A DNA stretch of 64,000 bases from Pedobacter sp. (GCA_039810685.1 JBDHXL010000009.1:8029-72028); one strand, 5' to 3'. Shown: positions 13,033-55,250, counted from the stretch's first letter. Translations and numbers: made by a program. Notes: generated from the sequence alone by a model not told the origin.

Positions 13033-13036
13033 ACTA

Positions 13037-14167: not shown

Positions 14168-14190
14168 GTTCTTCAACTAACTTTTAAATA

Positions 14191-20362: not shown

Positions 20363-20397
20363 AAAGGCGGTCAAATATTACTTTGGCTGCCTTTTTT
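20363..20397. terminator. Bidirectional terminator between slyD and lptF/G
   Basis: 13-bp stem aaaggcggtcaaa / tttggctgccttt (two G-U pairs) followed by a T-run. Confidence 0.8.
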
Positions 20398-21499
20398 ATT
20401 TAGGTGCCTTACGCAAGATTATTGCTCCGAGGAGGGCAAATATAATAATGGGTAAAAGATTGGCCACTAATGGAGAAAAGCCACCTTTGGTAGAAAACAT
20501 TTTGGTGAATTGCACCATTACAATAAAGAGAAAACTCAGTACAATGCCTATACCCAGTGATAGGCCTACACCACCACGTACTTTACGTGATGATAGCGCC
20601 ACACCTATTAAGGTTAGTACAAAGGCTGATAAAGGTTGGGTGTAGCGTTTGTACTGTTCAAATAGCAAATCATTCATGATACCCGAGCCTCTAATTTTTT
20701 CTTTTCTGATTTTGTCGCTCAATTCGCTATTTGTCATATTTTCCACCACATTATCATAAGCCGAGAAATCATCGGGTTTCATATCCAAAACCGTATCTTT
20801 TGTTTTGTCGTTGGCATAAACCATTCCTTCTTTTAGTCCCTTTATAGTTCGGATAGAGTAGTTGTTTAATCGCCATACTTTTTTGAGGGTATCGTAACTA
20901 ATTTTATCAGCTACAATCTTTTTTTCTAGCTCATCACCCTTAAATCGGTCTAGTGTAAATCGGTATCCAATATTGCTTCTGTTATCGAAATTATCAATAA
21001 ATATATAGGTGTTCTTGTCCAAACGCATGTGAATATTGGACTTGGTATAGGGGTCGTTTTTGTTTACCACTTGGTTCATGAAGCGGTTTTTTATTTTGTT
21101 GGTGTAAGGTAAAAGGTAAAGATTGGACAGCAGATTGGCACTAAAAATGATAAATGCCGCAATGAAATAAGGACGCAAAAAACGGTTGTAGCTAACACCA
21201 CCGCTAAGTATGGGTACAATCTCTGTTTGGTCGGCCATTTTTGCAGTAAAAAAGATTACAGCAATAAAGTTCATCAGCGGCGACAACATGTTGACATAGA
21301 AGGGAACCGAACCGGCGTAGTATTCTGTAAATACTTCCCATACGCTCATATCGTTTTCAAGAAAATCATCCAATTTCTCGGACAAATCAAAAATGATGAT
21401 TACCAGTACAAAAACAGCCAAAGTATAGACAAAAGTACCTAGGTACTTGCCAATTATATAACGATCAATGAGTTTTAGCCTGTTCTTAAAAAGGTTCAT
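20396..21499 (-). CDS. LptF/LptG-family LPS export permease
   Basis: IDRYIIGKYL, TM segments around a periplasmic beta domain, SGGVSYNRFLRP, GVALSSRKVRGG; TAATG overlap with tgt. Confidence 0.9.
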   Translation of the reverse strand: MNLFKNRLKLIDRYIIGKYLGTFVYTLAVFVLVIIIFDLSEKLDDFLENDMSVWEVFTEYYAGSVPFYVNMLSPLMNFIAVIFFTAKMADQTEIVPILSGGVSYNRFLRPYFIAAFIIFSANLLSNLYLLPYTNKIKNRFMNQVVNKNDPYTKSNIHMRLDKNTYIFIDNFDNRSNIGYRFTLDRFKGDELEKKIVADKISYDTLKKVWRLNNYSIRTIKGLKEGMVYANDKTKDTVLDMKPDDFSAYDNVVENMTNSELSDKIRKEKIRGSGIMNDLLFEQYKRYTQPLSAFVLTLIGVALSSRKVRGGVGLSLGIGIVLSFLFIVMVQFTKMFSTKGGFSPLVANLLPIIIFALLGAIILRKAPK

Positions 21500-22629
21500 T
21501 ATAATTTTGTGCCTAAGATAGGGAGCATTTTATTTTTCCAAGCATAAAATTCGCCCGAAATAATCTTGTTTCTGGCCTCAGTAACTAGCCAAAGATAAAA
21601 ATGTAAATTGTGCAGTGTTGCAATTTGTGCACCCAACATTTCTTTACTGTGCATCAAATGTCGTAAATAAGCTTTAGAGTACATTTTATCGGCCAATAAA
21701 TCACTTTCTTCCTCAATTGGCGAGTAGTCGTTGGCCCATTTTTTATTGCCAATATTGATCATGCCTTTGCGGGTAAAGAGCATACCGTTGCGGGCATTTC
21801 GGGTTGGCATTACACAATCAAACATGTCTATGCCCAAAGCAATATTTTCTAAAATGTTTACCGGTGTGCCCACGCCCATCAAATAACGAGGCTTATTTTG
21901 GGGCAAAATATTGCAAACTACCTCGGTCATGGCATACATTTCTTCGGCAGGCTCACCAACCGAAAGCCCACCGATAGCGTTGCCATCTCTGTTCATACTA
22001 GCAATAAATTCTGCCGATTTTTCTCGTAAGTCTTTATATACAGAACCTTGTACAATCGGAAATAAAGTTTGGTCGTATCCGTATTTGGGCTCGGTGCTGT
22101 CCATTCTTTCGCAACATCTTTTTAGCCAACGGTGGGTCATATTCAACGATTTGGCGGCGTAAGCATAATCGCAAGGGTAGGGTGTACATTCATCAAAAGC
22201 CATAATTATGTCTGCACCAATACTACGTTGAATATCAATTGCGTATTCGGGGCTGAAAAGATGTTTGGAACCATCTATATGCGAGCGAAAGGTAACCCCT
22301 TCTTCTCTGATTTTTCTGACCTGGCTTAGCGAATAAACCTGATAACCGCCACTATCTGTCAAAATTGGACGATCCCAGCTCATAAATCGATGCAAACCGC
22401 CAGCTTGTTCCAAAATATCAAGACCCGGACGAAGATAAAGATGATAGGTGTTGCCTAAAATAATTTGGGCATTAATATCTTCTTTTAATTGTTGTTGGTT
22501 GATAGCTTTTACGGTACCTGCTGTACCTACAGGCATAAAAATAGGAGTTGCTATTTCGCCGTGTGCCGTGCTTATAACTCCTGCTCTTGCCTTGCTGTTG
22601 GGGTCTTTTGCCTTTAGTTCAAACTTCAT
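21499..22629 (-). CDS. tgt: Queuine tRNA-ribosyltransferase
   Basis: TPIFMPVGT, GNTYHL, TDSGGYQ, FDECT, DMFDCVMPTRNARNG. Confidence 0.98.
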   Translation of the reverse strand: MKFELKAKDPNSKARAGVISTAHGEIATPIFMPVGTAGTVKAINQQQLKEDINAQIILGNTYHLYLRPGLDILEQAGGLHRFMSWDRPILTDSGGYQVYSLSQVRKIREEGVTFRSHIDGSKHLFSPEYAIDIQRSIGADIIMAFDECTPYPCDYAYAAKSLNMTHRWLKRCCERMDSTEPKYGYDQTLFPIVQGSVYKDLREKSAEFIASMNRDGNAIGGLSVGEPAEEMYAMTEVVCNILPQNKPRYLMGVGTPVNILENIALGIDMFDCVMPTRNARNGMLFTRKGMINIGNKKWANDYSPIEEESDLLADKMYSKAYLRHLMHSKEMLGAQIATLHNLHFYLWLVTEARNKIISGEFYAWKNKMLPILGTKL

Positions 22630-22660
22630 TTATTCGTAATGACCTTTCTAAAAAATCATG

Positions 22661-22668
22661 CAAAAATA
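22661..22668 (-). promoter_or_regulatory. -7 element (TATTTTTG) for tgt-lptF/G
   Basis: caaaaata on + strand, 31 nt upstream of the tgt start. Confidence 0.5.
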
Positions 22669-22795
22669 ACATTATTTTGCGTCATCCGCTTAGCATGTTA
22701 ATTTTAGCTAGCCAGTGTTTGTACCTATATGGAGATTGATTTTTCAACATCCTTCACTAATTGCGATAAAAAACAGACCTTTGCATCTTTCTGCT

Positions 22796-23926
22796 ATGAT
22801 AGCTCTCGATTTTAGTGTTTTAGAACTCAGTCTGTTAGTGGTACTAGGGCTTAGCGCATTAGTTCACCTTTTTTATTTGTTCTACTTTCATCTCCGCCTG
22901 CGTAATTATAAGCCCGACCCAATTGATAAACAGATTTATCATCCCTTGTCGGTTCTTATTGCGGCTCGTAACGAAGAAGAAAATTTGCGTAAGTACTTGC
23001 GTAAGGTGTTGACACAAGATTATCCCGATTTTGAGGTGGTGGTAATCAATGATCGCTCTAGTGATGACACGGCCGATGTATTGCGTGAATATGCTCAAGA
23101 ATTTAAACACCTGAAAATTGTTAATGTAAACCCCTACGATAGTTTTTTGGCTGGCAAAAAATTTGCGATAGCAATGGGTATTAAAGCAGCCAAGCACGAT
23201 TGGTTGGTCTTTACTGATGCCGATTGTGAACCTGCTAGCCAAAATTGGTTGAGGGAGATGTCGCTCCCGACAGATGAAACTAAGGAGATTTTGCTAGGCT
23301 ACTCGCCTTATACCAAACGCAAAGGCTTGTTAAATGCTTTAATTCGCTACGAAACCTTTTTTACAGCAGTCAACTACATGTCTTTTGCCCTCAGTGGTAG
23401 GGCCTATATGGGGGTAGGCCGTAATTTAGCCTACAAAAAAGAATTGTTCTTTAAGGGTAAAGGCTTCTCTGCTCACATGCACATTCCATCGGGCGATGAT
23501 GATTTATTTGTGAACGCCCATGCCAACCCTAGCAACACTGCCATACAGCTAGCCTACGATTCGCAAGTGTGGAGCGAACCCAAAACTACCTGGAGTACTT
23601 ATCTTAAACAGAAAAACAGACACTTAGGTGCCGGGCACTTTTATAAAGCCGAGCACAAACGATGGTTGACTGCCCAAATTATTTTCCAGGTTTTATTTTA
23701 TGCGTCAGTTATTGCGCTATGTTTTTTTACTAAAACACTTTATTTGTCTTTGGGGACTTTGGCCTTAGTTACATTACTCAAATATTTTGTTTATCCACCT
23801 TTGCTTAAAAGACTGAATTATGCAGAGTGGCGAGTGTTTTTTCCGGTATTAGAGATTCTTCTTCTTGTTTTTTTAGTCCTTAATGCCATTCTCGCTATCT
23901 TTGTCAAAAAAGTAAAGTGGAAATAG
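22796..23926 (+). CDS. Family 2 glycosyltransferase, membrane-anchored
   Basis: N-terminal TM, IAARNEE, INDRSSD, FTDADC (DxD), SGDDDLF, QKNRH, C-terminal TMs; ATG 22796 preferred over GTG 22715. Confidence 0.88.
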   Translation: MIALDFSVLELSLLVVLGLSALVHLFYLFYFHLRLRNYKPDPIDKQIYHPLSVLIAARNEEENLRKYLRKVLTQDYPDFEVVVINDRSSDDTADVLREYAQEFKHLKIVNVNPYDSFLAGKKFAIAMGIKAAKHDWLVFTDADCEPASQNWLREMSLPTDETKEILLGYSPYTKRKGLLNALIRYETFFTAVNYMSFALSGRAYMGVGRNLAYKKELFFKGKGFSAHMHIPSGDDDLFVNAHANPSNTAIQLAYDSQVWSEPKTTWSTYLKQKNRHLGAGHFYKAEHKRWLTAQIIFQVLFYASVIALCFFTKTLYLSLGTLALVTLLKYFVYPPLLKRLNYAEWRVFFPVLEILLLVFLVLNAILAIFVKKVKWK

Positions 23927-34871: not shown

Positions 34872-35837
34872 ATGTTAGTAGAATTAGATCAAACAACTTG
34901 GAACAATCGGATAAGCCAAATCCGTCCTATAAGCATGGAAGAGGAAGATGGTTTTGTGAAATCTTTATGTCGTGTTTTTGATTTAAAAGCCCGCTACTTT
35001 GTGTTTGAGCAAAAAGGAAGCATCAGATTAAGCTTTTTGGCACTTTGTAAGGGTAAAGCTATTGTACAGCCTATACATTTCTATTATTCGGCATTTTGGA
35101 TTGCTCCCGAGCTTAGCCAATTGCACAGTATGAACTTTTGTACTGAATTTATTGGGCAACTTAAAAAGTACTTTAACTGTATCGACTTGCGTTTGCCGCC
35201 TCAATATTCGGATATCAGACCATATTTGTGGAATGGTTTTTCTGTTACTAATAACTATACGTATATTAAAGATTTAACTCGGCTCAATTACTCTTCTTCC
35301 GTACAACGAAATATCAAACAAGCACAAAAACTAGCACTTAGTCTGCGTTGTGAACGTTTAAATGAAGCAAGTGAGCAACTGAACGCAGATGTGTTTGATG
35401 CCTTGGGTACTGTGCCACAAAAACGTAAGGCACAAATTGCCGCATTAATGCGTGCTTTGGATGAGCAAGGGCTGCTACGCTGTTTTAATTGTTATGCCGA
35501 TACTGAGTTGTTGGCCTCGCAACAGGTTTTCTTAGATTTTGTAAACAAAAAAGCTTATTTGGTATTGCTTAGTAGGCAAACTAAACAGCATGGTCAAAAT
35601 GTTCATGCGCTGCTGCACCATTTCTTGTTTGAGCATTTACAAAGTTTGGGCTATCTGAGGCTAGATTTGATGGGCGGAGATTTGCGAGGTATAGCTGATT
35701 TTAAAACCAGTTTAAAGGCCGATTTACAGCCTCATTTTACTTTGAAATATCGTAGCTCTGTCGCCAATATGGCTAAAATGAAGCAAAAGCTAGTGGATAG
35801 CTTAAAAAAGATGGTAGTAAGGATAGGTATGGCCTAA
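34872..35837 (+). CDS. FemAB-like / GNAT-fold acyl- or aminoacyl-transferase (polysaccharide-cluster type)
   Basis: DIRPYLWNGF.V..NYTY, QRNIKQA, late LDLMGG...IADFK; pattern of two-lobed Fem/GNAT proteins, divergent. Confidence 0.6.
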   Translation: MLVELDQTTWNNRISQIRPISMEEEDGFVKSLCRVFDLKARYFVFEQKGSIRLSFLALCKGKAIVQPIHFYYSAFWIAPELSQLHSMNFCTEFIGQLKKYFNCIDLRLPPQYSDIRPYLWNGFSVTNNYTYIKDLTRLNYSSSVQRNIKQAQKLALSLRCERLNEASEQLNADVFDALGTVPQKRKAQIAALMRALDEQGLLRCFNCYADTELLASQQVFLDFVNKKAYLVLLSRQTKQHGQNVHALLHHFLFEHLQSLGYLRLDLMGGDLRGIADFKTSLKADLQPHFTLKYRSSVANMAKMKQKLVDSLKKMVVRIGMA

Positions 35838-35950
35838 TAAATTGCAAAAAATTAAGGTCGTATAGGAAAGTACAAATCGTATATCTTCAGTAATAAATTT
35901 AAGGATTTGATTCCAATTTGAGTGCTTTAGATAAAAAGTTATTAGAAACT

Positions 35951-36508
35951 TTATTGATCGTATTTGGCATCAAACACTCCGCCTGTAATTTCTTTTTTAT
36001 TACCAAGATTATCTTTAGCAGTAAAATAAAATCTACCCGAAACTATTTTGTTTGCCGTGTCGAGTCGGGTGATTGCTAATTTGCCACTTTCTATAAAATA
36101 GCTTATCCCTTGTTTTGAGCTGTAATAGTCACCGTTATCACAATTATAGGGCTTATCACAATCGGGGATATTGCTTATTGGGTATTCTCCAGGTCCAAAT
36201 ACGTGTTGTTTTTGGATTAATATACGCCCAGAATGGGCAATGTTTCTAGCATCTATTCCTTGTATAGAAAAGAAACCGGCTTTATATGTTTTTGATGAGT
36301 TGGGCTGGTAATAGACACTTAAAGGATGAACATTTCCAAATAAAGTAGTTGAAGGTATGAAGGCCTTGTTATCTATGTAACAACCAAAAGTGTTTAAGCC
36401 ACTTTGTGTTTCTAAAGGAAACTTTGGTCCGTTTATCTTGCTTTTGAAACAGGCGGTATAAACGCAAAGTACACTGATTACTAGTGTTAATATTTTTAGG
36501 TTCTTCAT
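35951..36508 (-). CDS. Uncharacterised Bacteroidota lipoprotein (DUF6252/DUF5025-like)
   Basis: Lipoprotein-type signal ending VYTAC (Cys20); P.ETQSG.NTFGC and ITRLD....IVSGRF.F motifs. Confidence 0.7.
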   Translation of the reverse strand: MKNLKILTLVISVLCVYTACFKSKINGPKFPLETQSGLNTFGCYIDNKAFIPSTTLFGNVHPLSVYYQPNSSKTYKAGFFSIQGIDARNIAHSGRILIQKQHVFGPGEYPISNIPDCDKPYNCDNGDYYSSKQGISYFIESGKLAITRLDTANKIVSGRFYFTAKDNLGNKKEITGGVFDAKYDQ

Positions 36509-36656
36509 GTTTTAATGAGTATTGAACCAAATTATTTTCTGATAATCATGTAAATATAGGCTAAAATTGTTTATTGATATAGTTTTAGTGGTAGGGTTGG
36601 AGAATAATATTCAAATGCAAATTAAAAAAAGAATGAATTTTCCTGCTCGTTTCAAG

Positions 36657-36866
36657 CTACTTGTCCTCTACATACTCTAAAATATCGCTAGGTTGGCATG
36701 ATAAAACCTTACAAATCGCTTCTAAGGTGCTAAATCTAATTGCTTTTGCTTTTCCGGTCTTTAGTATAGAGAGGTTTGATAAGGTTATACCTACCTTTTC
36801 TGATAGTTCATTGAGCGTTATTTTGCGTTTGGCCATCACAACGTCTAAGTTTACAATAATTGCCAT
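36657..36866 (-). CDS. Xre/Cro-family HTH transcriptional regulator (YozG-like, DUF2975-associated)
   Basis: LDVVMAKRKITLNELSEKVGITLSNLSILKTGKAKAIRFSTLEAIC..L.CQPSDILEY. Confidence 0.93.
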   Translation of the reverse strand: MAIIVNLDVVMAKRKITLNELSEKVGITLSNLSILKTGKAKAIRFSTLEAICKVLSCQPSDILEYVEDK

Positions 36867-36869
36867 TAT

Positions 36870-37406
36870 TTACACGGTTAATTCGTTTTCGTTCTGTATT
36901 TCTACTCCTTTTTTGAAAATACATGCAATTATATAAACTACTGCTCCCATTAAAATATATGCATCACTATCTGCCCAAAACTGGTGAAGATTTTCGGTAT
37001 TTATATCATAACTATCCCATTTTTTCGTGGTTTGACGGGCAATAAAACTTATTAGCCCTATTGCCAGAGTATATTGGCTGATTAATGTGATTTGTTTTGC
37101 AGCAAAAGTGCTGAAGGGTTGTGCAAGGTTGAGTTGGTGCATTAACCTAATTACTGTGTAGAATAAAGCAGCTTTTAATAATGCAATGGTGATGATAAAA
37201 CTGTAGCTAGTTAAAAAGGCATACCAATTGATATCATATAGCTGGCTTAAATCAAGCTTTTGATAGAGGTGTTGTACAAAATCTGGCCAATATAGACTGA
37301 AAATGAAATTAACAACCAAACCACCTGCTTCTATACACAACGCTACAAAAATTATCCAAGCAATAATAAGCAAGGCTTTAAATACAAATTGATTTGTTTT
37401 TGACAT
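36870..37406 (-). CDS. DUF2975-domain membrane protein
   Basis: About four TM helices, PFS motif, C-terminal IFKKGVEIQNENELTV; directly upstream of the Xre gene. Confidence 0.88.
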   Translation of the reverse strand: MSKTNQFVFKALLIIAWIIFVALCIEAGGLVVNFIFSLYWPDFVQHLYQKLDLSQLYDINWYAFLTSYSFIITIALLKAALFYTVIRLMHQLNLAQPFSTFAAKQITLISQYTLAIGLISFIARQTTKKWDSYDINTENLHQFWADSDAYILMGAVVYIIACIFKKGVEIQNENELTV

Positions 37407-37434
37407 GATTTAAGGTTTAATCTAAAGTAAAGCT

Positions 37435-37469
37435 AAAAAATATTTATTGATTAACAATAAATATTTTTT
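37435..37469. promoter_or_regulatory. Perfect 15-bp inverted repeat, putative Xre operator
   Basis: AAAAAATATTTATTG-ATTAA-CAATAAATATTTTTT, 28 nt upstream of the DUF2975 start. Confidence 0.6.
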
Positions 37470-37590
37470 CTTTTTCGATTAAGTGAGTTTGAGTTTGTCC
37501 TGTCTAGAGCAAGGGTTAGCTGTTGGTATAAGTAGAGTAACAATTAAAAACCTCTATTGGATAAGACCAGTTGTGGGTTGTTTTCTCAGT

Positions 37591-39426
37591 TTATGAATCA
37601 AAATGTTTGTCGTACCACATCTGAAACTGTAGCAATAACCAAAGTTTGCGTGCATCGGTGCCATTGGGCGAGGCAAAAAAGCGATTTTTAAGTTTAAACA
37701 CCTCTATAATATCAAAAAATTGATGCTTGTTCAACTCATAAGGGCTGAGGTGCTTTTCGATAAAAGGTTTGTAGATAGTGCTCATCCAGGCAACTAGTGG
37801 TATGCTAAAACCTTGTTTGGGGTTGTCCATCATGGCCTTGGGTAGGTATTGGTGGCAAACTTGTTTTAGCAGATGTTTTAGCCCTTGTTTTGGATATAGC
37901 CATTTGGCATCTAAACTTTGTGCAAAGTTTACTAGGTCTAAACTTAGCAGCGCATCTCTATTATCTATGCTGTAGTGCATGGCACAGCGGTCGGCCTTCA
38001 TCATCAAATCGTTGGGAAGGTAATACTCCAAATCAAACCGAAGCAAACCCTTGATGTTTTGGGTGTTAAACTCATAAAAACTATTTGGTTCTAGTCTTTT
38101 GTTGAGCATTAAGCTAATTTCATTTTTTGGGAAAAACGAGCATATAGACTCATAACAGGCTCCCAAATTGTCGGTAAACAAAACTTCGTTGAGTTTGTTT
38201 TGCCGATGTTTGGAAAGACTACTGAGTATTTTCTTTAAAAAATTGGGTAATCTTCTGCTCAAGCAAAAAATTCGGTTGCTGAGTTTGTAATTGGTATAGC
38301 CGGCAAAAAGCTCATCGCCTCCTTCGGCACCCAGTAAAACCTTAATATTGTCGGCCGCAGATTGCTTGGCCAAAAAAGCTAAAGCTATGGCTCCGCTATC
38401 GCCGCTGGGCTCGTCCAGAATTTCCGGTAATTTTTCGAGCATTTCTACGGCATCTTGGGGTTCTATAAAGTATTCGTGATGATTAGTGTTTAGGTAGTTG
38501 GCTATATTTTTGGCTCTGCTGGCTTCGTTTAATCGCAGGTCTCTAAAACCCAATGTAAAGGTTTTTATACGTTGTACTTGGTTTTTTTGTAAGATAGCGG
38601 CAACGGTTGCACTATCATAACCACCACTTAGCATTACGCCTGTTGATAGATCGGCGGTGTATCGCCTAAGCACAGATTCTGTTATGAGATTGTTGAGCTG
38701 TTTAATGAGACCGTCTTCGGTATTGGCAGCCACAAGGTTGTTGAAACGGCTTTCAAACCTATTCATCATGTAGTTGCCGCTAGCCAAATCAATGACCATG
38801 TAGTGCTGTTTTTTGAAGTTTTTTATACCCTCAAAAATTGTTTCTTCACCAATAAAATAGCCCTGTCTGAGATAGGTTTCTATGCAAGGTCGATGTATAT
38901 TTTTGACGATGGGGTAATGCAACAAAGCCTTAATTTCTGAAGCAAAAACAAAGAAATTGTTGTTTTTGAACCAATAAAGTGGTTTTACCCCCATTTGGTC
39001 ACGAGCCAAAATCATTTGGTTGCGTCTTCGGTCTATGATGGCAAAGGCAAAGGTACCATCAATATGCTCAAACATCTGGGTGCCCCATTTTTTGAAACAC
39101 GCTAACAGTACTTCGGTGTCGGACAGGGTGTGGAATATTGCGCCTTGACGTATCATGGTCAGCCTTAGCTCTTGGTAATTGTATATGGTGCCGTTAAAGC
39201 TGATGACATAGTTTCCACATGCCGAGTGAAATGGTTGTTGGGCTTCGGCGCTAATGTCTATAGTAGAAAGCCTTTCGGTGGCTATACCCACCGTATATTT
39301 TTCTTTTTGTTCAACAAAATTACCGCTGCTACTGCCACCTCGATGTTGCAAGCGTGCAGAAGCAGCCAATAGTTCTGTTTCTGTTACTAATCCGTGGTAA
39401 TCAATAAAACCTGTTATGCCACACAT
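37591..39426 (-). CDS. AsnB-like glutamine-dependent amidotransferase (polysaccharide/WbpS-type), motif-divergent
   Basis: MCGITG (Cys2), FNG.IYNY, DTEV, GVKPLY, LSGGYDS, GEGGDELFAGY, KQGF.IP; TAATG overlap with the C25 gene. Confidence 0.88.
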   Translation of the reverse strand: MCGITGFIDYHGLVTETELLAASARLQHRGGSSSGNFVEQKEKYTVGIATERLSTIDISAEAQQPFHSACGNYVISFNGTIYNYQELRLTMIRQGAIFHTLSDTEVLLACFKKWGTQMFEHIDGTFAFAIIDRRRNQMILARDQMGVKPLYWFKNNNFFVFASEIKALLHYPIVKNIHRPCIETYLRQGYFIGEETIFEGIKNFKKQHYMVIDLASGNYMMNRFESRFNNLVAANTEDGLIKQLNNLITESVLRRYTADLSTGVMLSGGYDSATVAAILQKNQVQRIKTFTLGFRDLRLNEASRAKNIANYLNTNHHEYFIEPQDAVEMLEKLPEILDEPSGDSGAIALAFLAKQSAADNIKVLLGAEGGDELFAGYTNYKLSNRIFCLSRRLPNFLKKILSSLSKHRQNKLNEVLFTDNLGACYESICSFFPKNEISLMLNKRLEPNSFYEFNTQNIKGLLRFDLEYYLPNDLMMKADRCAMHYSIDNRDALLSLDLVNFAQSLDAKWLYPKQGLKHLLKQVCHQYLPKAMMDNPKQGFSIPLVAWMSTIYKPFIEKHLSPYELNKHQFFDIIEVFKLKNRFFASPNGTDARKLWLLLQFQMWYDKHFDS

Positions 39427-42400
39427 TATCTCATCAAGTATATTTTACCTATGTTCTTTTTAAAATATTTATCGCCTCCAGTGCTGCGGTGTTTAATACT
39501 AGAGTGGTCGTTGTTCTCAATACTTACTTTATAAAAGTAAACACCGTTGGCCAGTTTATCGCCGTACATGTCGGTACCGTCCCAAGTAAAATCCGAAATA
39601 TTGTTGCCGATACGCAGGTTGCCTAATTCGTTTTTCAACACCTCACGTACTACCTTGCCGCTAATGGTCATAATCTGTACTTTGATATTGTCGGGCACCT
39701 TATCGCCTGTTAGGGTGAAAACAAATTTCATTGCTGTACTAAAAGGGTTGGGGTAGGGATAGAAATTGCTGACGGAGGCTTCATTAATCACTTCAAAATC
39801 TATCGTGTAATTGTTGCTTGGATTTTTGTTGCCACTGGCATCTTTTGCCTCTACCATTAGTGTGTAAATACCGTCATCGAGCTTTTGCGGTTTAAAAATT
39901 GCTGTGGCTTTGTTGTTGTTGGCTGTAGTGGCAGGCATAAAACTCAGTAAACCTGATGAGTAGGCAATTTTCTTAAAATTATTGTTTTCGTCTTTTAAAT
40001 AAACAGTCATGGCGCTGGTGTCTGAGAGTAGAATATAGGGGTTCTCATCACTCAAGCTGATGTTGATGTTGGGTTGTGGCGATACGATTTCGCCATTCAT
40101 AATTCGTTTACCATCAAAAGATACGTCAACTAGGGGCTCTTTGTTGTCGCGGCTAACTTGGAAGCTCTGCTGGATATAATTGTTGAAAGCATAACTGTCC
40201 AACCCGTTTATCGGCTCAAAATCCATTTTTAAAAGATTATTGCCCACTAATCCTAAGCTCGGTAGTTTTAGGGTGAAGATTTGGCTTGCTCCCGGAGCCA
40301 ATGCAGGGATCTTACCTACTTTTGCACTTACAACACTACGGTCTGGCTTGGTTAGACTATAATAAATATTTACCGAATCACTTTGGTATTTAGAGAAGTT
40401 TTGGTAAGCGATATGCCATTTTATGCTGTCGCCCTCTTGGATGGTATTGTTATAAAAATCATGCTTGATTTCGGTGTTGATTCCGGCCTCGGGAAGTTCG
40501 TTATACAAAAATTTCCATTGTAGGGGCTGGGCAGGTGTCCGATTGCTGGCATCTGTATATTTAACCCTAAATCCCATTTTTGGGTATTGTGTAGCGTCGT
40601 AAGCCGATAAGTTGATGGTGTTTCCGCTGAGGTTGCTTTGAAGTACGTCGCTAGAACCATCAGGCTTATAGCCAAGCAAATCGTAAACAACTTGGTCTCC
40701 GCTCTCTAGTGTAGAGCTAAAGCTAGCACTAGTCCATTTGGTGGCAGGCCCGGCCTTGGCACTGATATAAGTGCCTTGGGTAAGCGGATAGCCGTAGGTA
40801 ACATCAAATTTTATTTGTTGATTTTTTGCCGGTTCTTGGTTGGTATAGTCGGCAGTTTTCTCTATTGCAGTACCTTGTGCAGCACCTTTTACTCCCCAAA
40901 ACATATAAGGTTCGCCAGGTCCAATATTGCCAATTTGTGCTACACCTACTTGTTTGAAAGCATTTATGGCTGCTTGGGGTAGTGCTGATAAATTGATTCC
41001 TCTACCGTTGAAGCCCATCACTTTGTAACCCTCGGGAATACGATTGAGATGAGCCACCAAACTGTCCACAGCTATCGGATTGTTGGTATCATAATAGAAT
41101 TGTCCGGAATAATATGGCCCGGCACCATCATTATTGACAACATTATAGGGCGAAGGGTAATTGTATGCCCGCATGGTGGTGGGGTTGAGGGCGATGAGGG
41201 TAAAGCCCACAAACTCGTAGCCAAGATAGCCCAGCCTTCCACCTGGGTTGGATCGGTAAGTTCTTTCATCTACGGTAGGTGCGTCGTCTCCTCGGGTTTG
41301 TATGCTGGTGGCAAAGGCGGTTTTGGCAAATTCCAATTTTTGGCCATTGTACTCCAAACTAGTGAGTGTAGCGTCTTTTAGTTGCTGAAAATGTGTTTGG
41401 GCCCATCCATCAGGACTATCTTGGATATAGGTGAATGATGCGGATTGCCAAGTGCCTCCTTTGTCGGGATCAATATTAAGCCTTACCCGCCAATAATAAG
41501 CTTTATTAGCTGTGTTGGGTAAAACAACTTGCCATTTCGGCATAAACCCACTGTTGATGGTGCTACTTCTTTTCCAAGGGCTATCAAAGGTGCTCAGGGT
41601 GTCAAGCTCAAAAATATATTCGGCATTTTTGATTGCCAAATCGCTTGATTGGGCGACGAGATCAACGGTATTTTTCCCTACAATTGCATAAGGTTTGGGG
41701 TAGAGTAGGTTTACGCCATTTGATGCAAAAAAATAGTTAAGATTTGCACTATTGTTGGTCTTGCTCAATTCGTCAAACTGGTTGTCGGGATCTAAAATTA
41801 CCTGAAAACGATTCATCCCTGCAGAACTGAGGTTGTTTTGGTTGATATCAAAATAAACCGTATCAGTATTGAATACCGGGTTGGCATTAATACTTGGATA
41901 GTTGATTGTGCTATTGTCTGGGAGTGTTCTTGCTAAGTTAATTTTTAATGGTTGATTAATTGCTTTGCCGATGTTTTTGGCAATGAGCCCTACTCTAAAT
42001 GTGTTGCTCATGGCGTTGACGTTGTTCGGCGATAGAAACAAATCTTGATCTTCAAGCGCAAAATCGGGTTTGGAAGGGGTATAAAATTTTAAAGCCGGAT
42101 CTCCCTGAAAAGTGTACTGCGTGGTGTGCATCACGTTGATGACATCATTTAGGTTTTGGTATTGCTGTTTGCTCAGTCTAATTGCTTCGGCAATTGAGGC
42201 ACCATAATTGGTATTGAAAACATTTCTGTAGAAAATAGAACTGAAACTTGATAGGTAACTGGCTACCCCTTCGCTAGATGTTCCTATCCAGCCTATAGCT
42301 CCTTTGTCGGGGAAAAACATCAGCTTATCACCCAATGAGGGTTCGTAGATATAGGTATTTCCGGTTGTACAGCCGTTAACTAGGTAAGTGAGTAGGGTGT

Positions 42401-44354
42401 TGGCGTTGTCCAGCTCATCGGCATGTCCAAAGTCAATTTCGGTAGCTTGGTGTGCTCCGTGTCCCAAGAAAGAGAGTAAGGCTGCACCTTTGTTGATTTC
42501 GCCGATAATTCGCTGCTTTTGATTGGTGCTAACCGGAAGACCTACGTTTTTGTTGAAGTTGACGGTGTCGGCACCAAAGGGCACATCCTTGGTCATATTG
42601 TACATGTTGGCCTGATAATTGGCCCATGAAATATTTTCGGAAAGGTTGGCTCCACCACTGATGTGGATGAATTTTTTGCGCCATAAAGCATTTGGATATT
42701 GCTCGTAGCGTTGTAGTTTTTGCAAGTATAGCTCAACCTCTGCATTGGTGCTGGCTCCCAAACGGCCTGTTGCCAATGCGGGGGCAAGGCTGGTACTGTT
42801 AATACGGGCGGTCAACAAATCATCTGATGGTGGCGAACCGTAAGTGGGCACCAAATCATCTGCCAAACCCGATGCCGAACGTACCAAGTGGTTTTCCAAT
42901 CCTTTGCCCAGCAACAACAAGTATTTGGGTTTTATGTTGGCGTACTGCATCAAATATTTGATGAAATTTTTTATGGCCAAGGGGTGGTGTACGCCGTAAT
43001 AAAACTGGTCATACAATTGTTCTGTAGTGATAAGTAGCGGTTTGAAACCTTTCAGTTGGCGATAATTGGCGTAGTTTTGAGCACTAGTTTGTAGTTTGTT
43101 ATTGGTAACAATAAGAAAATCTTTGTCAAAACTAGCTGGCGATAGGTTAAAAAAATTAACTTTTGATAGGGTAGTAGGCGTGTAAGCGGCACTGTCTGCC
43201 AAGTAATAGTTGTAGTTTTGATTAGCTGCTGCAAGCACAAAATCAGCTGTATTTCCGTTGATAGTACCTACTATTCTCTGTTGGTTTTCAATATCCCAAA
43301 CAATAGGTTTGGCAAGATTGTTATTATTGAAACTGAGCCAGCGGTTTTGGCTGCTGCTACCTAAACCAAAGTTGAGCCAATTGGTATTTTGCAGATTGGG
43401 TAGCCTTGGATAAGTAATTAAGGCATAAGCCGGAGCCTGATAGTCTGTGGCTTCGTTAGACATGCCCAAGTCGTTGATAGATTGATAAATTACAGTGCTG
43501 GTGTTGCCAATTTCATTGGGCAAAATGTTAATATTGGTACGTATTACCTCGTAGCCACGAAATAAGGTGTCTTTTTTGTAGTAGGTAGTTGTTCCGTTGT
43601 TGATACCAATTCGTAAGTGGTGGTTGTAGCGTTGTGGATGTGGCGAATCGGCATCTGATCGCCCCGCCACATAGGTTTCGAGGTTGATGCTCGGCGCACC
43701 CGAACCTGTATATAAGAAAGGAGTATTTAAGCTATTGCTTTGGGTTTGTCCTTTGCCATAAACAGCACCTAAAAATCCTTCGCCAGCCTGATAATCGGAT
43801 AAACTCATGTGGGCTATGATGTACCGACCTTGATAATAGGCATCGGTGAAAACTTTTAGGCTCTTGCTTAAAATGTAGGCTTCGGGATTGAGCCCGCTAG
43901 TACTGGCTTTAAAATTTTGAATTCTTTTGCCTGCTACATTTGGTGCATAGGTTAAATAGTAAGCTGCAGTATCGGTAAATAGGCTGTAATACTTATGAGG
44001 TTGATCATTTGCATTGACATATAATTCGGTATCCAACCTACCGTCGTTGCCTTCGCCGTAAAACTCAATAAAATCGTTACTGTCAAAACTATTGTCGGCC
44101 TGGCCATGCACATAAATGGCTTGTTCTATCCCGTTTTTGTAGATCAGGAAGTTTTTTGGGGCAAGACTGTTGAGGTTGCTGTAATATTGTCCCAATTGAC
44201 TTGCGGTAATTCGGTAAATACCTTTGTTTACCACTTTTATTTTGTAGTAAGCTTGGTTGTGGTTTATCCAATCGTTGCCATAGGGTGTTTGTGCGTAGCC
44301 CGCTATTTGCAGAAAGGTAAGCAATATTAAGGGTAGAATAATCTTACGGCTCAT
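39426..44354 (-). CDS. C25 (gingipain/PorU-family) cysteine peptidase, PorU2-like, with Ig-like domains and T9SS CTD
   Basis: Signal peptide from ATG 44354; YGEGNDGRLD; YLLLLGKG; LATGRL; FLGHG (His codon 42459-61) and VNGCTTG (Cys codon 42369-71); GDPAL; C-terminal YPNPFS...WDG.D...LANGVYFYKV...KIYLMR. Confidence 0.88.
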   Translation of the reverse strand: MSRKIILPLILLTFLQIAGYAQTPYGNDWINHNQAYYKIKVVNKGIYRITASQLGQYYSNLNSLAPKNFLIYKNGIEQAIYVHGQADNSFDSNDFIEFYGEGNDGRLDTELYVNANDQPHKYYSLFTDTAAYYLTYAPNVAGKRIQNFKASTSGLNPEAYILSKSLKVFTDAYYQGRYIIAHMSLSDYQAGEGFLGAVYGKGQTQSNSLNTPFLYTGSGAPSINLETYVAGRSDADSPHPQRYNHHLRIGINNGTTTYYKKDTLFRGYEVIRTNINILPNEIGNTSTVIYQSINDLGMSNEATDYQAPAYALITYPRLPNLQNTNWLNFGLGSSSQNRWLSFNNNNLAKPIVWDIENQQRIVGTINGNTADFVLAAANQNYNYYLADSAAYTPTTLSKVNFFNLSPASFDKDFLIVTNNKLQTSAQNYANYRQLKGFKPLLITTEQLYDQFYYGVHHPLAIKNFIKYLMQYANIKPKYLLLLGKGLENHLVRSASGLADDLVPTYGSPPSDDLLTARINSTSLAPALATGRLGASTNAEVELYLQKLQRYEQYPNALWRKKFIHISGGANLSENISWANYQANMYNMTKDVPFGADTVNFNKNVGLPVSTNQKQRIIGEINKGAALLSFLGHGAHQATEIDFGHADELDNANTLLTYLVNGCTTGNTYIYEPSLGDKLMFFPDKGAIGWIGTSSEGVASYLSSFSSIFYRNVFNTNYGASIAEAIRLSKQQYQNLNDVINVMHTTQYTFQGDPALKFYTPSKPDFALEDQDLFLSPNNVNAMSNTFRVGLIAKNIGKAINQPLKINLARTLPDNSTINYPSINANPVFNTDTVYFDINQNNLSSAGMNRFQVILDPDNQFDELSKTNNSANLNYFFASNGVNLLYPKPYAIVGKNTVDLVAQSSDLAIKNAEYIFELDTLSTFDSPWKRSSTINSGFMPKWQVVLPNTANKAYYWRVRLNIDPDKGGTWQSASFTYIQDSPDGWAQTHFQQLKDATLTSLEYNGQKLEFAKTAFATSIQTRGDDAPTVDERTYRSNPGGRLGYLGYEFVGFTLIALNPTTMRAYNYPSPYNVVNNDGAGPYYSGQFYYDTNNPIAVDSLVAHLNRIPEGYKVMGFNGRGINLSALPQAAINAFKQVGVAQIGNIGPGEPYMFWGVKGAAQGTAIEKTADYTNQEPAKNQQIKFDVTYGYPLTQGTYISAKAGPATKWTSASFSSTLESGDQVVYDLLGYKPDGSSDVLQSNLSGNTINLSAYDATQYPKMGFRVKYTDASNRTPAQPLQWKFLYNELPEAGINTEIKHDFYNNTIQEGDSIKWHIAYQNFSKYQSDSVNIYYSLTKPDRSVVSAKVGKIPALAPGASQIFTLKLPSLGLVGNNLLKMDFEPINGLDSYAFNNYIQQSFQVSRDNKEPLVDVSFDGKRIMNGEIVSPQPNINISLSDENPYILLSDTSAMTVYLKDENNNFKKIAYSSGLLSFMPATTANNNKATAIFKPQKLDDGIYTLMVEAKDASGNKNPSNNYTIDFEVINEASVSNFYPYPNPFSTAMKFVFTLTGDKVPDNIKVQIMTISGKVVREVLKNELGNLRIGNNISDFTWDGTDMYGDKLANGVYFYKVSIENNDHSSIKHRSTGGDKYFKKNIGKIYLMR

Positions 44355-44359
44355 AAATT

Positions 44360-44367
44360 CAAACATA
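44360..44367 (-). promoter_or_regulatory. -7 element (TATGTTTG) for the C25-asnB operon
   Basis: caaacata on + strand, 5 nt upstream of ATG 44354; supports that start codon. Confidence 0.6.
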
Positions 44368-44436
44368 CAAATAATCGGCAATTTATGAAATATTAGCCGC
44401 AGCACTCTTTTTTTTATATTTTTACCTCAACTGGTT

Positions 44437-45609
44437 ATGAAATTTTCGAACACTGTTTTGTTTCTACCTGCCTGGTATCCTAACCGGACGCATGCCTCTA
44501 TCGGTTCTTTTATACGCAGTCATGCCGAAGCTTTGAGCAAACAAATACAGGTACATGTTTTGCATGTTTGCGGTGATGAGCAGGCTCGGCGTTTATTTGA
44601 GTTAGAACAATCATTGGTAAACGGTGTTGAAACCTACGTGCTATATTACCGCAAACCGGCCTCCAAAACAAAACTGGCTCTACTGAGGAAAGCTATTTTG
44701 CATGGTGTTGCTTTGTTTTATGCTTATTACCTCTACCGAAAAAATCAGCCTCGACCAGGTGTTTTTCATGTGCATGTACTTAGCCGCTCGGCTTTGGTGC
44801 CTTTTACACTTAACTTGTTCACTAAAACGCCTTATTATATTAGCGAGCATTGGTCTCGCTATGTTCCCGAAGACGGCAGTTATAAGGGATACTTGCGAAA
44901 AGCATTTACAAAGGCAGTGGTCAAGCGGTCGAGAGGGCTTTCTGCAGTAACGGCATATTTGGGTACACATTTGCAAAATCATGCCTTGTCTCATCCCAAT
45001 TTTAAAGTGATTTCTAACGTTGTTCGAGAGCTATTTGTAAAGGCTCCGTTTCACAACCTACCCGTTGCAGAAACAGGTTATTTTGTACATGTCTCCAATT
45101 TTGCCCGTGATGTTAAAAACGTATTGATGATTTTGGAGATGGCAAAGATTATGCAGCAGCAAAATATTCCGTTTAAGCTGGTTATGGTGGGCGATGGAGA
45201 TGAGCTGGAAGCAGCCCAAGCATTTGCTACACGTGAAGCACTCGGCAATGTTGTATTTACCGGTTTTTTGTATGATGATGCTTTGTTATCCATTATGCAA
45301 AATGCAAAAGCCTTAGTCATGTTTAGCCACTATGAAACCCAATCGGTAGTAGCTCTAGAAAGTCTTACTTTAGGTGTTCCGGTTATCTCATCGGCAGTTG
45401 GTGGCCTAGCCGAAATTGTTAATGAGCAGAATGGTATTTTGGTTGAACCTAAAAATACCTCTGCTTTGGTAGCTGCAATAAAAATGTTTTTAGATACAGG
45501 TAATAGATTTGATAGATTAGCTATTCGGCAAGCAGCCTTAAAAAAATATTCTCCTGAAGTTATAGCACAAGAATTTTTGGATTTTTATAAGGCTGGAACA
45601 GAGCTTTAA
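44437..45609 (+). CDS. GT4 glycosyltransferase (TuaC-like)
   Basis: VLFLPAWYP...G.F, HVH, SEHWS, ISNVV, ETQSVVALE (E-x7-E), GVPVISS.VGG. Confidence 0.88.
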   Translation: MKFSNTVLFLPAWYPNRTHASIGSFIRSHAEALSKQIQVHVLHVCGDEQARRLFELEQSLVNGVETYVLYYRKPASKTKLALLRKAILHGVALFYAYYLYRKNQPRPGVFHVHVLSRSALVPFTLNLFTKTPYYISEHWSRYVPEDGSYKGYLRKAFTKAVVKRSRGLSAVTAYLGTHLQNHALSHPNFKVISNVVRELFVKAPFHNLPVAETGYFVHVSNFARDVKNVLMILEMAKIMQQQNIPFKLVMVGDGDELEAAQAFATREALGNVVFTGFLYDDALLSIMQNAKALVMFSHYETQSVVALESLTLGVPVISSAVGGLAEIVNEQNGILVEPKNTSALVAAIKMFLDTGNRFDRLAIRQAALKKYSPEVIAQEFLDFYKAGTEL

Positions 45610-52858: not shown

Positions 52859-54115
52859 TCAATTCGTGTCTATTTTTTTATTTTTTTCTTTCTCGGCTAT
52901 CCAAAGCGAGAGGTATTTGGTGCTCTGCAAACTGTGGTGACGCAAAATTTCGCCTATAAAATTCTGTTCTCGGTGTTGTGTTAGGTTTGCTTGCAGGGTG
53001 TTAATTTGGTGCAGTAGTTGCGTTTTCCATTTTTGTCGAGCAAACAACTGGTTGATAATAGGAGCAATGTTTTTTTGCGCCTCCATCCATTTGTCTTTAT
53101 GCGTATAGAGCGCAAGTGCCTGCTCACAGAAAACGGTTTTGTTGTCGCTAATATAACCTGGCCAAGCTAGTTGTTGGTGCATACCTTCGGCTCCTATACT
53201 GCTCGTAACCGATGGGGTGCCGCTTTGCATGGCATCAATTAATTTGCCTTTTGCACCTGCACCAAAGCTAAGCGGAGCCAACATTACACGGTGTTGGGCT
53301 ATACTAGCTAAGGCGTTCTCAGTTCTTCCTTCAATTAAAAAACCATCTTTTTCTTGGTGTAGTTGTAATACTTTATGGCTTGGGTAGGCACCGTAGATAT
53401 GCAATGTAGCTTGTTTGGCTTTTTTGCGAATAATTGGCCAAATCTCATTTTTTAAACTAAGTACAGCTTGCCAATTGGGTTCGTGTATAAAATTGCCAAT
53501 AAATACAAATCCGGTTCTGTCTTCGAATTTGGTCCATTGTGCCATCTTGTTTTCATCCAATTCATCCTCCATAAATGGCAGGTAAAACAACAACTCTTCG
53601 GCAATCTGAAAAGTTGCAGTAAGTAGTTTTATCTCGGCCTGCGAAATAATGATCGAAAGGTCGCAGCGTAGTATAGAGGCAATTTCTCTTTTGGCTATTT
53701 CGTTATACAGATGCTTCGTTTCAAAATTATTTTGCTGCTTATAAGCATTTTCTCGGCCTTTTCGGAGTAGGTGTAAGTCTTCTGTGTCGAGCAATAAAAG
53801 TGTATTAGGACAGTTTTGTCTTACTCGCCAACCGTATTGTTCTTCGGTGATAAAGCGGTCGAAAATGACAATATTTGGCTGTAATTGGGCTACCCATTGG
53901 TCAAAACTATTGTCGTTCAGTTTGATGGGACATACCTCAACTCCTAAATCTTGTAGCGGGAAAGAATAAGTGCTCCATTGTGCTGCAGAAGCAAAATAGC
54001 AGGTATATTGTTCGGGCTCAAAGCAATTTAATAGTTGCAAGATACGGGTTCCGGCTGCAGACGATTGGGGCTCTGGCCATACCAGACCTATGAATAAGAC
54101 TTTTTGCTTTTTCAT
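52859..54115 (-). CDS. GT4-like glycosyltransferase (WPEP family)
   Basis: VWPEPQSSAAG, FDRFITEEQYGW, DTEDLHLLR, IGNF.HEPN, APLSFGAG.KGK; start at ATG 54115. Confidence 0.8.
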   Translation of the reverse strand: MKKQKVLFIGLVWPEPQSSAAGTRILQLLNCFEPEQYTCYFASAAQWSTYSFPLQDLGVEVCPIKLNDNSFDQWVAQLQPNIVIFDRFITEEQYGWRVRQNCPNTLLLLDTEDLHLLRKGRENAYKQQNNFETKHLYNEIAKREIASILRCDLSIIISQAEIKLLTATFQIAEELLFYLPFMEDELDENKMAQWTKFEDRTGFVFIGNFIHEPNWQAVLSLKNEIWPIIRKKAKQATLHIYGAYPSHKVLQLHQEKDGFLIEGRTENALASIAQHRVMLAPLSFGAGAKGKLIDAMQSGTPSVTSSIGAEGMHQQLAWPGYISDNKTVFCEQALALYTHKDKWMEAQKNIAPIINQLFARQKWKTQLLHQINTLQANLTQHREQNFIGEILRHHSLQSTKYLSLWIAEKEKNKKIDTN

Positions 54116-54181
54116 TTGCTGCAAAGGTCAGCAATTTATGCTTTATATTTTAGTTTTGTTGTTGCATAGATAGGCAAATAC

Positions 54182-54189
54182 TACCTTTG
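54182..54189 (+). promoter_or_regulatory. -7 element (TACCTTTG) for the lpxK-PNP-porin operon
   Basis: Consensus match 8 nt before ATG 54198. Confidence 0.6.
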
Positions 54190-54197
54190 TTTTGCTT

Positions 54198-55250
54198 ATG
54201 TTAAAAGTAATCCGACTTTTATTGTGGCCTTTGAGCTTGCTTTTTGCGGTAGTAGTTTACTTCAGAAATCGATTATTTGATTGGGGTATTTTCCCCTCCA
54301 AAAGCTTTGATAAACCGGTTATTGCCGTTGGTAATTTGGCTGTGGGCGGTAGCGGCAAAACCCCAACGGTTGAATATTTGTTGCGTTTGCTTGATGGTTA
54401 TAAGGTAGCGGTATTGAGTAGGGGTTACGGCAGAAAAAGTAAAGGCTTTTTGTTGGCCGATGAAAATTCGGATGCACAAAGCATTGGTGATGAGCCTTTA
54501 CAATACTATCGTAAATTTCCGCAGGTTACTGTTGCAGTTTGCGAAGACAGAGTAGAAGGTATTGCCCGGCTATTGCCCAAACACGATTTGATTTTGCTGG
54601 ATGATGCCTATCAACACCGTTGGGTGAAACCCGGGTTTAATTTGCTTTTGTTTGATTGGCCACGGCTTATACGCCGACAATGGCTGTTGCCTAGTGGCGA
54701 TTTGCGAGAACCTTACTCGGGTGTAAAACGAGCCCAAGCCATTTGGATAACCAAAGCACCCGCTAATCTAACTGATGATGAGTGCAAAAAAGCTTTAGGC
54801 AAATTAAACCTTACCAAACAACAAGACCTGTTTTTTACACAGATACAATATTTAGCACCTCGGGCGTTGCACGGTAAAGGACAAATTTCTTTAACGGCTG
54901 ATGTTGAGGTTTTTTTGTTAAGTGGAATTGCTAATCCCCAGCCTCTACTGCAATATTTGAGTTCGTTGAATATCAAATATCATCATTTTGATTTTCCTGA
55001 TCATTATGCTTTTAAACTAGCTGATATCAAACAGCTCAAAAATGCGTTTGAGACTTCGATTGTACGACAAAAAATTATCTTGACCACCGAAAAAGATGCT
55101 CAACGATTATTTGGCGATGAGTTTAAAGAATTACTGTTAAATTTGCCGATATACTATTTGCCTATTCAGTTTACTTTGGGTGAGACCGAGAAACTGCAAT
55201 TTGACAAAAAAATATTAGATTATGTTGCAAGCTTTAGAAGAGTCAATTAA
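54198..55250 (+). CDS. lpxK: Tetraacyldisaccharide 4'-kinase
   Basis: VGNLAVGGSGKTP, LSRGYGR, GDEP, LDDAYQH, LPSGDLRE, FPDHY, TTEKD. Confidence 0.96.
   Translation: MLKVIRLLLWPLSLLFAVVVYFRNRLFDWGIFPSKSFDKPVIAVGNLAVGGSGKTPTVEYLLRLLDGYKVAVLSRGYGRKSKGFLLADENSDAQSIGDEPLQYYRKFPQVTVAVCEDRVEGIARLLPKHDLILLDDAYQHRWVKPGFNLLLFDWPRLIRRQWLLPSGDLREPYSGVKRAQAIWITKAPANLTDDECKKALGKLNLTKQQDLFFTQIQYLAPRALHGKGQISLTADVEVFLLSGIANPQPLLQYLSSLNIKYHHFDFPDHYAFKLADIKQLKNAFETSIVRQKIILTTEKDAQRLFGDEFKELLLNLPIYYLPIQFTLGETEKLQFDKKILDYVASFRRVN

Follow-up and report, generated by a model that had tools for sequence, protein, structure and literature searches.

A PorU2-family sortase paralogue encoded beside candidate sugar-decorating enzymes in Pedobacter and other Sphingobacteriales

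Introduction

The chemistry by which type IX secretion system (T9SS) cargo proteins are anchored is known only for a few oral Bacteroidales. In the pathway described for Porphyromonas gingivalis, WbpA, WbpB, WbpE and WbpD build di-N-acetylglucuronic acid (PMC7468200, PMC13086638), VimE, a CE4 deacetylase, takes off an acetyl group (PMC7468200), and VimA is believed to attach Ser or Gly (PMC7468200, PMC13086638); VimA was also reported to match the family model TIGR03019 (PMC7468200). WbpS (PGN_1234) amidates the acid, a step that attachment in P. gingivalis does not require, and VimF is a probable sugar transferase described only as a glycosyltransferase (PMC7468200, PMC13086638). Genes for FemAB-like, AsnB-like and deacetylase proteins also adjoin exosortase genes (PMC7468200). 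For environmental Bacteroidota, the mechanism of T9SS cargo anchoring was stated as unresolved in a review (PMC11611037). Here we describe a locus of Pedobacter sp. in which a gene for a C25 peptidase related to PorU of P. gingivalis, named porU2 below, lies among genes for an AsnB-family amidotransferase, a family 4 glycosyltransferase (GT4; other glycosyltransferase families are abbreviated likewise) and a GNAT-like protein. It occupies positions 34,872 to 45,609 of a stretch of 64,000 nucleotides (GCA_039810685.1, JBDHXL010000009.1:8029-72028), which is called the window and in whose coordinates its features are given. The locus is a testable candidate for how Pedobacter-like environmental bacteria anchor secreted proteins.

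A PorU2-type protein in Pedobacter sp.

We identified the C25 protein of the window as a paralogue of PorU and, judging from its sequence, a member of the curated PorU2 family; in Sphingobacteriales, genes of this family are linked to genes for glycan enzymes. The match to NF052324 ("putative type IX secretion system sortase PorU2") spans model positions 5-879 of 879 and reaches 795.5 bits (cutoff 450), which makes the protein a full-length member of a widespread family (at least 589 genome loci). Against the canonical PorU model, NF033707, it scored 265.1 bits, below the cutoff of 420. An original prediction, made from the sequence alone, had proposed a second PorU-type sorting system here. 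That idea is already encoded in the model names of NCBIfam and is not new; the family itself is annotated there, and the window protein does not represent a new one.

The same prediction had called the protein a catalytically intact PorU paralogue, and both parts of this claim were borne out. Phmmer with the PorU2 sequence found no match among PDB sequences, and a profile search was needed. With the family profile, the best solved relative was P. gingivalis PorU (6za2, E 6.6e-27), aligned in three regions, namely the N-terminus, the C25 catalytic domain and a C-terminal region including the C-terminal domain (CTD), whereas the gingipains Kgp and RgpB gave weaker matches in the same search (E 1.7e-9 to 1.6e-7). 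The Peptidase_C25 domain was recognized with 215 bits. Its predicted catalytic residues, His632 and Cys662, line up with the catalytic motifs of PorU and gingipains in the comparison of the family profile with the PDB, were invariant in a 17-sequence alignment and were kept in at least 90% of the sequences of a 32-sequence alignment.

The mechanical open reading frame (ORF) of this gene extends from a GTG start (39426-44405). The actual start is the ATG at 44354, which begins a Sec signal peptide, MSRKIILPLILLTFLQIAGYAQ. The predicted protein contains this signal peptide (residues 1-22), the C25 domain (~413-756), beta-sandwiches together with an ILEI/FAM3-like domain (~760-1420) and a type-A CTD (~1534-1618) that matched TIGR04183 with 30.5 bits (cutoff 23). 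PorU keeps its CTD. In PorU2, conservation is highest over the last 140 residues, which is therefore more in keeping with a docking domain that stays on the protein than with a signal that is discarded. The signal peptide, the CTD and the His/Cys motifs are shared with P. gingivalis PorU, in contrast to the length: PorU2 is ~490 residues longer, the excess consisting of tandem beta-sandwiches and one alpha/beta domain, for which sequence profiles point to a relationship with ILEI/FAM3 and the POMGnT1 stem. A model of the middle region (pLDDT 88.7) was compared with known structures by Foldseek and matched only generic strings of macroglobulin-like and Ig-like domains (TM <=0.24), so that a likeness to the beta-propeller protein PorZ was unsupported. 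Nearly all of the 120 homologues listed covered ~99-100% of the query, with lengths mostly of 1,598-1,731 aa; NCBI and UniRef give the name PorU2 to homologues from Pedobacter, Rufibacter and further genera.

Organization of the locus

The gene arrangement agreed with that described originally: coordinates matched for a TAATG overlap between the C25 and AsnB genes, for an 82-bp divergent spacing between the C25 and GT4 genes, and for a GNAT-like gene on the far side of AsnB, beyond an unrelated module of 1.75 kb that was found to encode DUF2975, HTH_26 and Riean_0653 proteins. The features are as follows.

34872-35837, plus strand: GNAT-like gene, 321 aa; modelled FemX/MprF-fold tandem-GNAT protein, Acetyltransf_6 29.4 bits
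35951-37406, minus strand: inserted module of three genes unrelated to the surrounding set
35951-36508, minus strand: Riean_0653-family (DUF6252) lipoprotein, in the inserted module
36657-36866, minus strand: HTH_26 regulator, in the inserted module
36870-37406, minus strand: DUF2975 membrane protein, in the inserted module
37591-39426, minus strand: AsnB-family glutamine-dependent amidotransferase, 611 aa; TIGR01536 372.6 bits
39426-44354, minus strand: porU2 (C25), 1,642 aa; NF052324 795.5 bits
42369-42461, minus strand: predicted catalytic dyad, with the His632 codon at 42459-42461 (FLGHGA) and the Cys662 codon at 42369-42371 (VNGCT)
44355-44436, no strand: divergent intergenic region between porU2 and the GT4 gene, 82 bp
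44437-45609, plus strand: GT4 glycosyltransferase, 390 aa; Glycos_transf_1 100 bits

The porU2 stop codon overlaps the AsnB start codon (gaTAATGtgt), an operon-type coupling. The AsnB protein begins with MCGITGF, which supplies Cys2 of the Ntn amidotransferase domain, and retains the PP-loop motif SGGYDS. Asn_synthase and GATase_7 were its Pfam matches, and it exceeded the cutoff of the generic model TIGR01536 (372.6 bits vs 267.1). More specific models were not reached: its scores stayed under cutoff with the housekeeping AsnB model (NF006949, 244 vs 499), with the model of the XrtA/PEP-CTERM amidotransferase (TIGR03108, 345.8 vs 816.9) and with models of lasso-peptide cyclases and of N-acetylglutaminylglutamine amidotransferase (160 and 287 bits). 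Likewise, no NCBIfam equivalog reached its cutoff with the GT4 protein, whose second-best match was the XrtA-system glycosyltransferase model TIGR03088 (67.9 bits vs a cutoff of 409).

The GNAT-like protein matched Acetyltransf_6 (PF13480) weakly (29.4 bits, cutoff 22); 8/16 family members matched this model. Its AlphaFold2 model, folded from an alignment of 16 sequences obtained by profile search, had a pLDDT of 88 and a pTM of 0.80. In Foldseek, the top 27 matches of this model were aminoacyl-tRNA-dependent transferases with a tandem-GNAT fold, the class to which VimA has been proposed to belong; among them were Sba18/Sbb17 (E 3.9e-12, TMq 0.66), enzymes that acylate an aminosugar, FemX (E 1e-11, TMq 0.64), FemA and the aminoacyl-phosphatidylglycerol synthase domain of MprF. 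A sequence-profile search of the PDB gave a weak match in the same direction (9wqw, E 0.11). The FemAB-like character ascribed to this protein in the original prediction is thus reflected in a FemX/MprF-type fold, and the protein is a candidate aminoacyl or acyl transferase that may act on an amino sugar. The wider family is large (3,141 representative clusters at E <=1e-3); VimA was sought among its distant members, and the ten relatives looked up carried only the names "GNAT family" and "CelD/BcsL family".

Neighbourhoods of PorU2 in Bacteroidota

PorU2 loci were collected from one genome per species; at least 589 were found, 80 of which were fetched (cited below by L numbers) and their ORFs clustered de novo. 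For Sphingobacteriales we inspected L002-L009, L014 and L015, together with eight distinct loci (L081 and L083-L089). Each fetched locus had a single copy of PorU2. The commonest neighbour, present in 42/80 loci, was PorV2, a PorV/PorQ-like barrel of ~360 aa encoded directly upstream on the same strand, which scored 532.7 bits with NF052325 ("putative type IX sorting system protein PorV2"). In contrast to such typical PorU2-PorV2 loci, those of the window and of other Sphingobacteriales had glycan enzymes in place of a local PorV2. This lineage-specific coupling of PorU2 to a Vim-like enzyme set is what appears to be new.

Clustering of the AsnB, GT4 and GNAT-like genes was conserved yet rearranged, and hence more than inherited order, across Sphingobacteriales loci whose PorU2 proteins had 34-65% identity. 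The most constant neighbour was the GNAT-like gene: an HMM (hidden Markov model) of its family matched 17/19 informative Sphingobacteriales loci and no locus of other lineages. In most loci this gene lay downstream of porU2 in convergent orientation, whereas L014 and L015 had it upstream, in divergent orientation. Whenever AsnB was present in a Sphingobacteriales locus, it abutted the porU2 stop codon (9/9 loci, PorU2 identity 42-65%), with a junction that reads TAATG (five loci), TAAATG (three) or TAAtATG (one). GT4 homologues were found beside PorU2 in 11/20 Sphingobacteriales loci. The 1.75-kb insert between AsnB and the GNAT-like gene occurred in the window genome only and was absent at every related locus examined; in these relatives, the GNAT-like gene directly followed AsnB or PorU2 with nothing in between. 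Genes for purL, TonB and type III glutamine synthetase flank the locus in syntenic order in Sphingobacteriales relatives. The window has lost the purL flank, yet the GT4-porU2-asnB group and the GNAT-like gene are still together. Two recurrent neighbours of unknown identity had no match when searched by phmmer against PDB sequences.

Several Sphingobacteriales loci carried further genes, which differed from one locus to the next.

L083 (P. ureilyticus): Wzx-type flippase, hexapeptide acetyltransferase, CE4 deacetylase
L084: GT11, GT2, Hist_deacetyl-family protein
L086: GT2, GT87, methyltransferase
L087: Acyl_transf_3 protein
L089: DUF6798 protein, flippase
L005 and L006: GT2

The deacetylase gene of L083 (Polysacc_deac_1) adjoins the GNAT-like gene, and no other locus showed a CE4 neighbour.

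The distance between the porU2 ATG (44354) and the GT4 start (44437) is exactly 82 bp in the window, and the divergent spacing was 51-82 bp in six genomes. Within this region, the motif TATGTTTG (TAnnTTTG) ends 5 nt upstream of the porU2 ATG. A perfect TAnnTTTG was found 4-7 nt before the ATG in 5/8 distinct loci with exact gene starts (the window, L083, L084, L086 and L088), where ~1.2% per locus would be expected by chance. We take TAnnTTTG to be the -7 promoter motif of Bacteroidota. Because it sits only 4-7 nt from the ATG, its position suggests that the porU2 mRNA is leaderless or nearly so. General scans for sigma-70 promoters and terminators gave no excess over shuffled sequence (26 vs 30.5 and 9 vs 11.4, respectively).

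Outside Sphingobacteriales, glycan genes were found beside PorU2 only sporadically. In L019, which belongs to an unrelated Bacteroidia metagenome-assembled genome (MAG), genes for a 398-aa unknown protein, GT4, AsnB, a second GT4, a carbamoyltransferase and a GT2 fragment precede PorU2 on the same strand (2056-15013), a linkage of glycan genes to PorU2 that, by gene order, is independent. A GT2 gene lay beside PorU2 in L028, L037 and L046. In L010, L011 and L013 the neighbours were housekeeping genes, and none of the glycan genes described above accompanies PorU2 in L010 and L011. Conservation of the neighbourhood in relatives, on which the original prediction had staked its case, therefore held for Sphingobacteriales and failed for most other Bacteroidota, where PorV2 was the neighbour and glycan genes were missing.

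Comparison with the Wbp/Vim pathway and exosortase loci

Of the Wbp/Vim linking-sugar pathway, described in P. gingivalis and T. forsythia, three enzyme classes are represented in the window: an AsnB-type amidotransferase (as WbpS), a FemAB-superfamily protein (as VimA) and a GT4, the family to which the original prediction assigned VimF. A VimE-like CE4 deacetylase is adjacent in one relative, L083, and none is present in the window. The original prediction had described VimE as Fem/GNAT-like, which was wrong, VimE being a CE4 deacetylase (PMC7468200). The genomic setting also differs, since the wbp and vim genes of P. gingivalis are not beside porU, whereas genes of these enzyme classes flank porU2 in the window.

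The second comparison is with extracellular polysaccharide (EPS) loci of the PEP-CTERM/exosortase (XrtA/EpsH) systems, in which a sorting transpeptidase likewise lies beside FemAB-like (TIGR03019), AsnB-like (eps_aminotran_1, TIGR03108) and GT4 proteins (PMC7468200); stp glycosyltransferases belong to these loci as well. After the generic AsnB model, TIGR03108 was the best match of the window AsnB, far below its cutoff. The sorting enzyme of the window is different in kind, as it is predicted to be an outer-surface C25 peptidase and not an inner-membrane exosortase. After the exosortase systems and P. gingivalis, this locus would be the third setting in which a protein-sorting transpeptidase is found with FemAB-like and AsnB-like enzymes.

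Possible function and alternative explanations

We tentatively favour a sortase-plus-acceptor model, which we hold to be possible, if somewhat short of probable. In this model, PorU2, a paralogue of the PorU sortase with its catalytic residues intact, would be exported by the T9SS, and the genes to which porU2 is coupled in Sphingobacteriales would encode cytoplasmic enzymes for decorating a sugar. This type of locus thereby places PorU2 with a handful of enzymes that are candidates for building the acceptor, namely the FemX-fold transferase, AsnB and GT4. The enzymatic steps, the acceptor role and the choice of cargo that we infer are as follows. GT4 and, in relatives, further glycosyltransferases would assemble a lipid-linked glycan; the AsnB-family enzyme would amidate a carboxylate, as WbpS does in making a uronamide; the FemX-fold tandem-GNAT protein would put an amino acid or acyl group on a sugar amine, as proposed for VimA; genes located elsewhere would flip the glycan and display it on lipopolysaccharide (LPS) or another glycolipid; and PorU2 at the surface would cut off the CTD of some T9SS cargo proteins and join the new C-terminus to the sugar amine. 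Three observations together argue that PorU2 is functionally linked to a decorated surface glycan in Sphingobacteriales: the asnB start has remained fused to the porU2 stop over deep divergence, the FemX-fold gene is still a neighbour after rearrangements, and glycan genes occur beside PorU2 in unrelated MAGs. The model is further favoured by membership in the PorU2 family with an intact dyad, by PorU and not the gingipains as the closest solved relative, by the conserved CTD, by the additional glycan genes of relatives, by the fold of the GNAT-like protein, and by the occurrence of the FemAB-like, AsnB-like and glycosyltransferase trio with exosortases and in the Wbp/Vim pathway (PMC7468200). 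Such a link of sortase and glycan is plausible, though confined to this lineage and lacking some of its parts in the window. A more elaborate proposal, which we consider unlikely, is that PorU2, the FemX-fold transferase, AsnB and GT4 form a second T9SS attachment route, by which a subset of cargo would be placed onto an aminoacylated, amidated sugar of its own; the additional 650 residues of PorU2, with their beta-sandwich and ILEI/FAM3-like domains, would present the glycan, which is the job of the separate protein PorZ in P. gingivalis, and the accessory enzymes, which vary, would give each species a different acceptor, much as O-antigen loci do.

A number of results weigh against the sortase-plus-acceptor model. 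PorV2 was found, by HMM and tblastn searches, neither in the window nor in any Sphingobacteriales locus, and the ~60 loci from outside this lineage mostly had PorV2 and housekeeping neighbours without glycan genes. About half of the PorU2 loci in Sphingobacteriales lack AsnB, the accessory glycan genes differ from locus to locus, and inherited synteny extending from purL to type III glutamine synthetase could account for some of the linkage. Among the scanned ORFs of the window there was no WbpA, WbpB, WbpD or WbpE (no such dehydrogenase, aminotransferase or acetyltransferase, which may lie elsewhere in the genome), and no deacetylase, flippase, ligase, PorV2, PorZ or PorQ. Because the Wbp enzymes, deacetylase, flippase and ligase were not found in the window, the locus is not self-contained, and this part of the original prediction had to be abandoned. 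As for the GNAT-like protein, TIGR03019, the model matched by VimA, gave no match with it at E values up to 10. Tandem-GNAT acetyltransferases also matched its fold (E ~3e-9), and the donor may therefore be acyl-CoA instead of aminoacyl-tRNA. In the literature we found no publication or experiment on the PorU2 family, nor the names PorU2 and PorV2 used for such proteins.

The main rival to the sortase-plus-acceptor model is coincidence, which we regard as rather unlikely. PorU2 would then act with PorV2 or PorV as a CTD peptidase or sortase unconnected with the neighbouring enzymes, and the GT4, AsnB and GNAT-like genes would belong to a hypervariable LPS or EPS island at the same purL-glutamine synthetase site. 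Such an island would fit the restriction of the glycan genes to one lineage while PorV2 is the neighbour in 42/80 loci, the accessory content that varies like that of O-antigen islands, the syntenic purL, TonB and glutamine synthetase flanks, and the occurrence of PorU2 without any of these genes in L010 and L011. It is harder to reconcile with a porU2-asnB fusion in 9/9 loci at 42-65% identity, with a GNAT-like gene that stays adjacent through changes of side and orientation, and with the window itself, where the purL flank is lost and GT4-porU2-asnB and the GNAT-like gene have nevertheless remained together; glycan genes have also come to lie independently beside PorU2 in L019, L028, L037 and L046.

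Alternatively, PorU2 might be a plain, large surface or secreted T9SS cargo protein without a sortase role, that is, a gingipain-like protease or adhesin whose CTD serves as an ordinary export signal. A signal peptide with a type-A CTD (TIGR04183, 30.5 bits), many Ig-like and macroglobulin-like beta-sandwiches typical of surface proteins and a score under the canonical PorU cutoff (265 vs 420) would all be expected of such a protein. We nevertheless consider this very unlikely, given the match to PorU at E 6.6e-27, which includes N- and C-terminal regions and compares with ~1e-9 for gingipains, the dedicated PorV/PorQ-like barrel paired with PorU2 in 42 loci, and the finding at each fetched locus of a single PorU2, constant in length (~1,650 aa) and with a CTD that is conserved to an unusual degree. 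Highly improbable, in our judgement, is a role of the AsnB, FemX-like and GT4 proteins on a peptide or peptidoglycan-type precursor, or in making a glycopeptide metabolite, with PorU2 processing or exporting the product. The idea draws on the AsnB homologues, which include lasso-peptide cyclases and N-acetylglutaminylglutamine amidotransferase (both models below cutoff), and on the substrates of the structural relatives, as FemX works on UDP-MurNAc-pentapeptide and Sba18/Sbb17 on an aminosugar antibiotic scaffold. However, the ORF scan of the window locus revealed no precursor-peptide ORF and no ATP-grasp or nonribosomal peptide synthetase gene, the cutoffs of all specific equivalogs were missed, and the loci of relatives include genes typical of surface glycans, namely those for Wzx-type flippases, for a CE4 deacetylase and for several glycosyltransferases.

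Other T9SS and LPS genes and additional observations

The original prediction had listed PorT, PorG and a CTD substrate as T9SS genes of the window. PorG (4025-4861) was confirmed with 152.6 bits against a cutoff of 130, as was a type-A CTD cargo protein (58048-60144), and these two confirm a T9SS background; PorT was not found in any window ORF scanned. PorG lies in a housekeeping envelope cluster (4025-9434) with NAD kinase, uppS, an 847-aa ORF and two Skp-like chaperones. Scattered LPS-related genes, none of which is a Wbp enzyme, were observed at 52859-55250 and 20396-23926 and include a GT4-like gene beside lpxK, an LptF/G permease and a GT2; the GT4-like gene beside lpxK had a weak match to the PEP-CTERM stp1 model.

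The GNAT-like gene was duplicated in four Sphingobacteriales loci (L005, 16852-18744; L008, 16058-19432; L014, 8915-15556; and L089, 4209-15709), where the two FemX-fold proteins may add two different residues. Two of the loci had unexpected taxon labels: L005 is labelled "Flavobacteriaceae bacterium" and L016 "Rhizobium sp.", and both have PorU2 in Sphingobacteriales-type synteny. The labels look wrong because of this synteny and because their type III glutamine synthetases are 73-86% identical to that of the window.

Among PorV2-bearing loci, 24 (those named being Cytophagales) have the porV2-porU2 pair preceded by a conserved divergent gene pair encoding proteins of ~112 aa and ~820 aa; examples occur among L022-L080, such as L026 (5757-9950). 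By eye, these proteins resemble a PadR-like regulator and a PspC-domain membrane protein, and they may constitute an envelope-stress regulatory unit tied to porV2-porU2.

Finally, the distribution of the window porU2 sequence (39426-44405) in public sequencing runs was narrow. It was found only in metagenome DNA runs from activated sludge, bioreactors and biofilms, with no RNA run found to hold it, and Logan assemblies contain a 99%-identical PorU2 (P0001) and GNAT-like protein (P0121).

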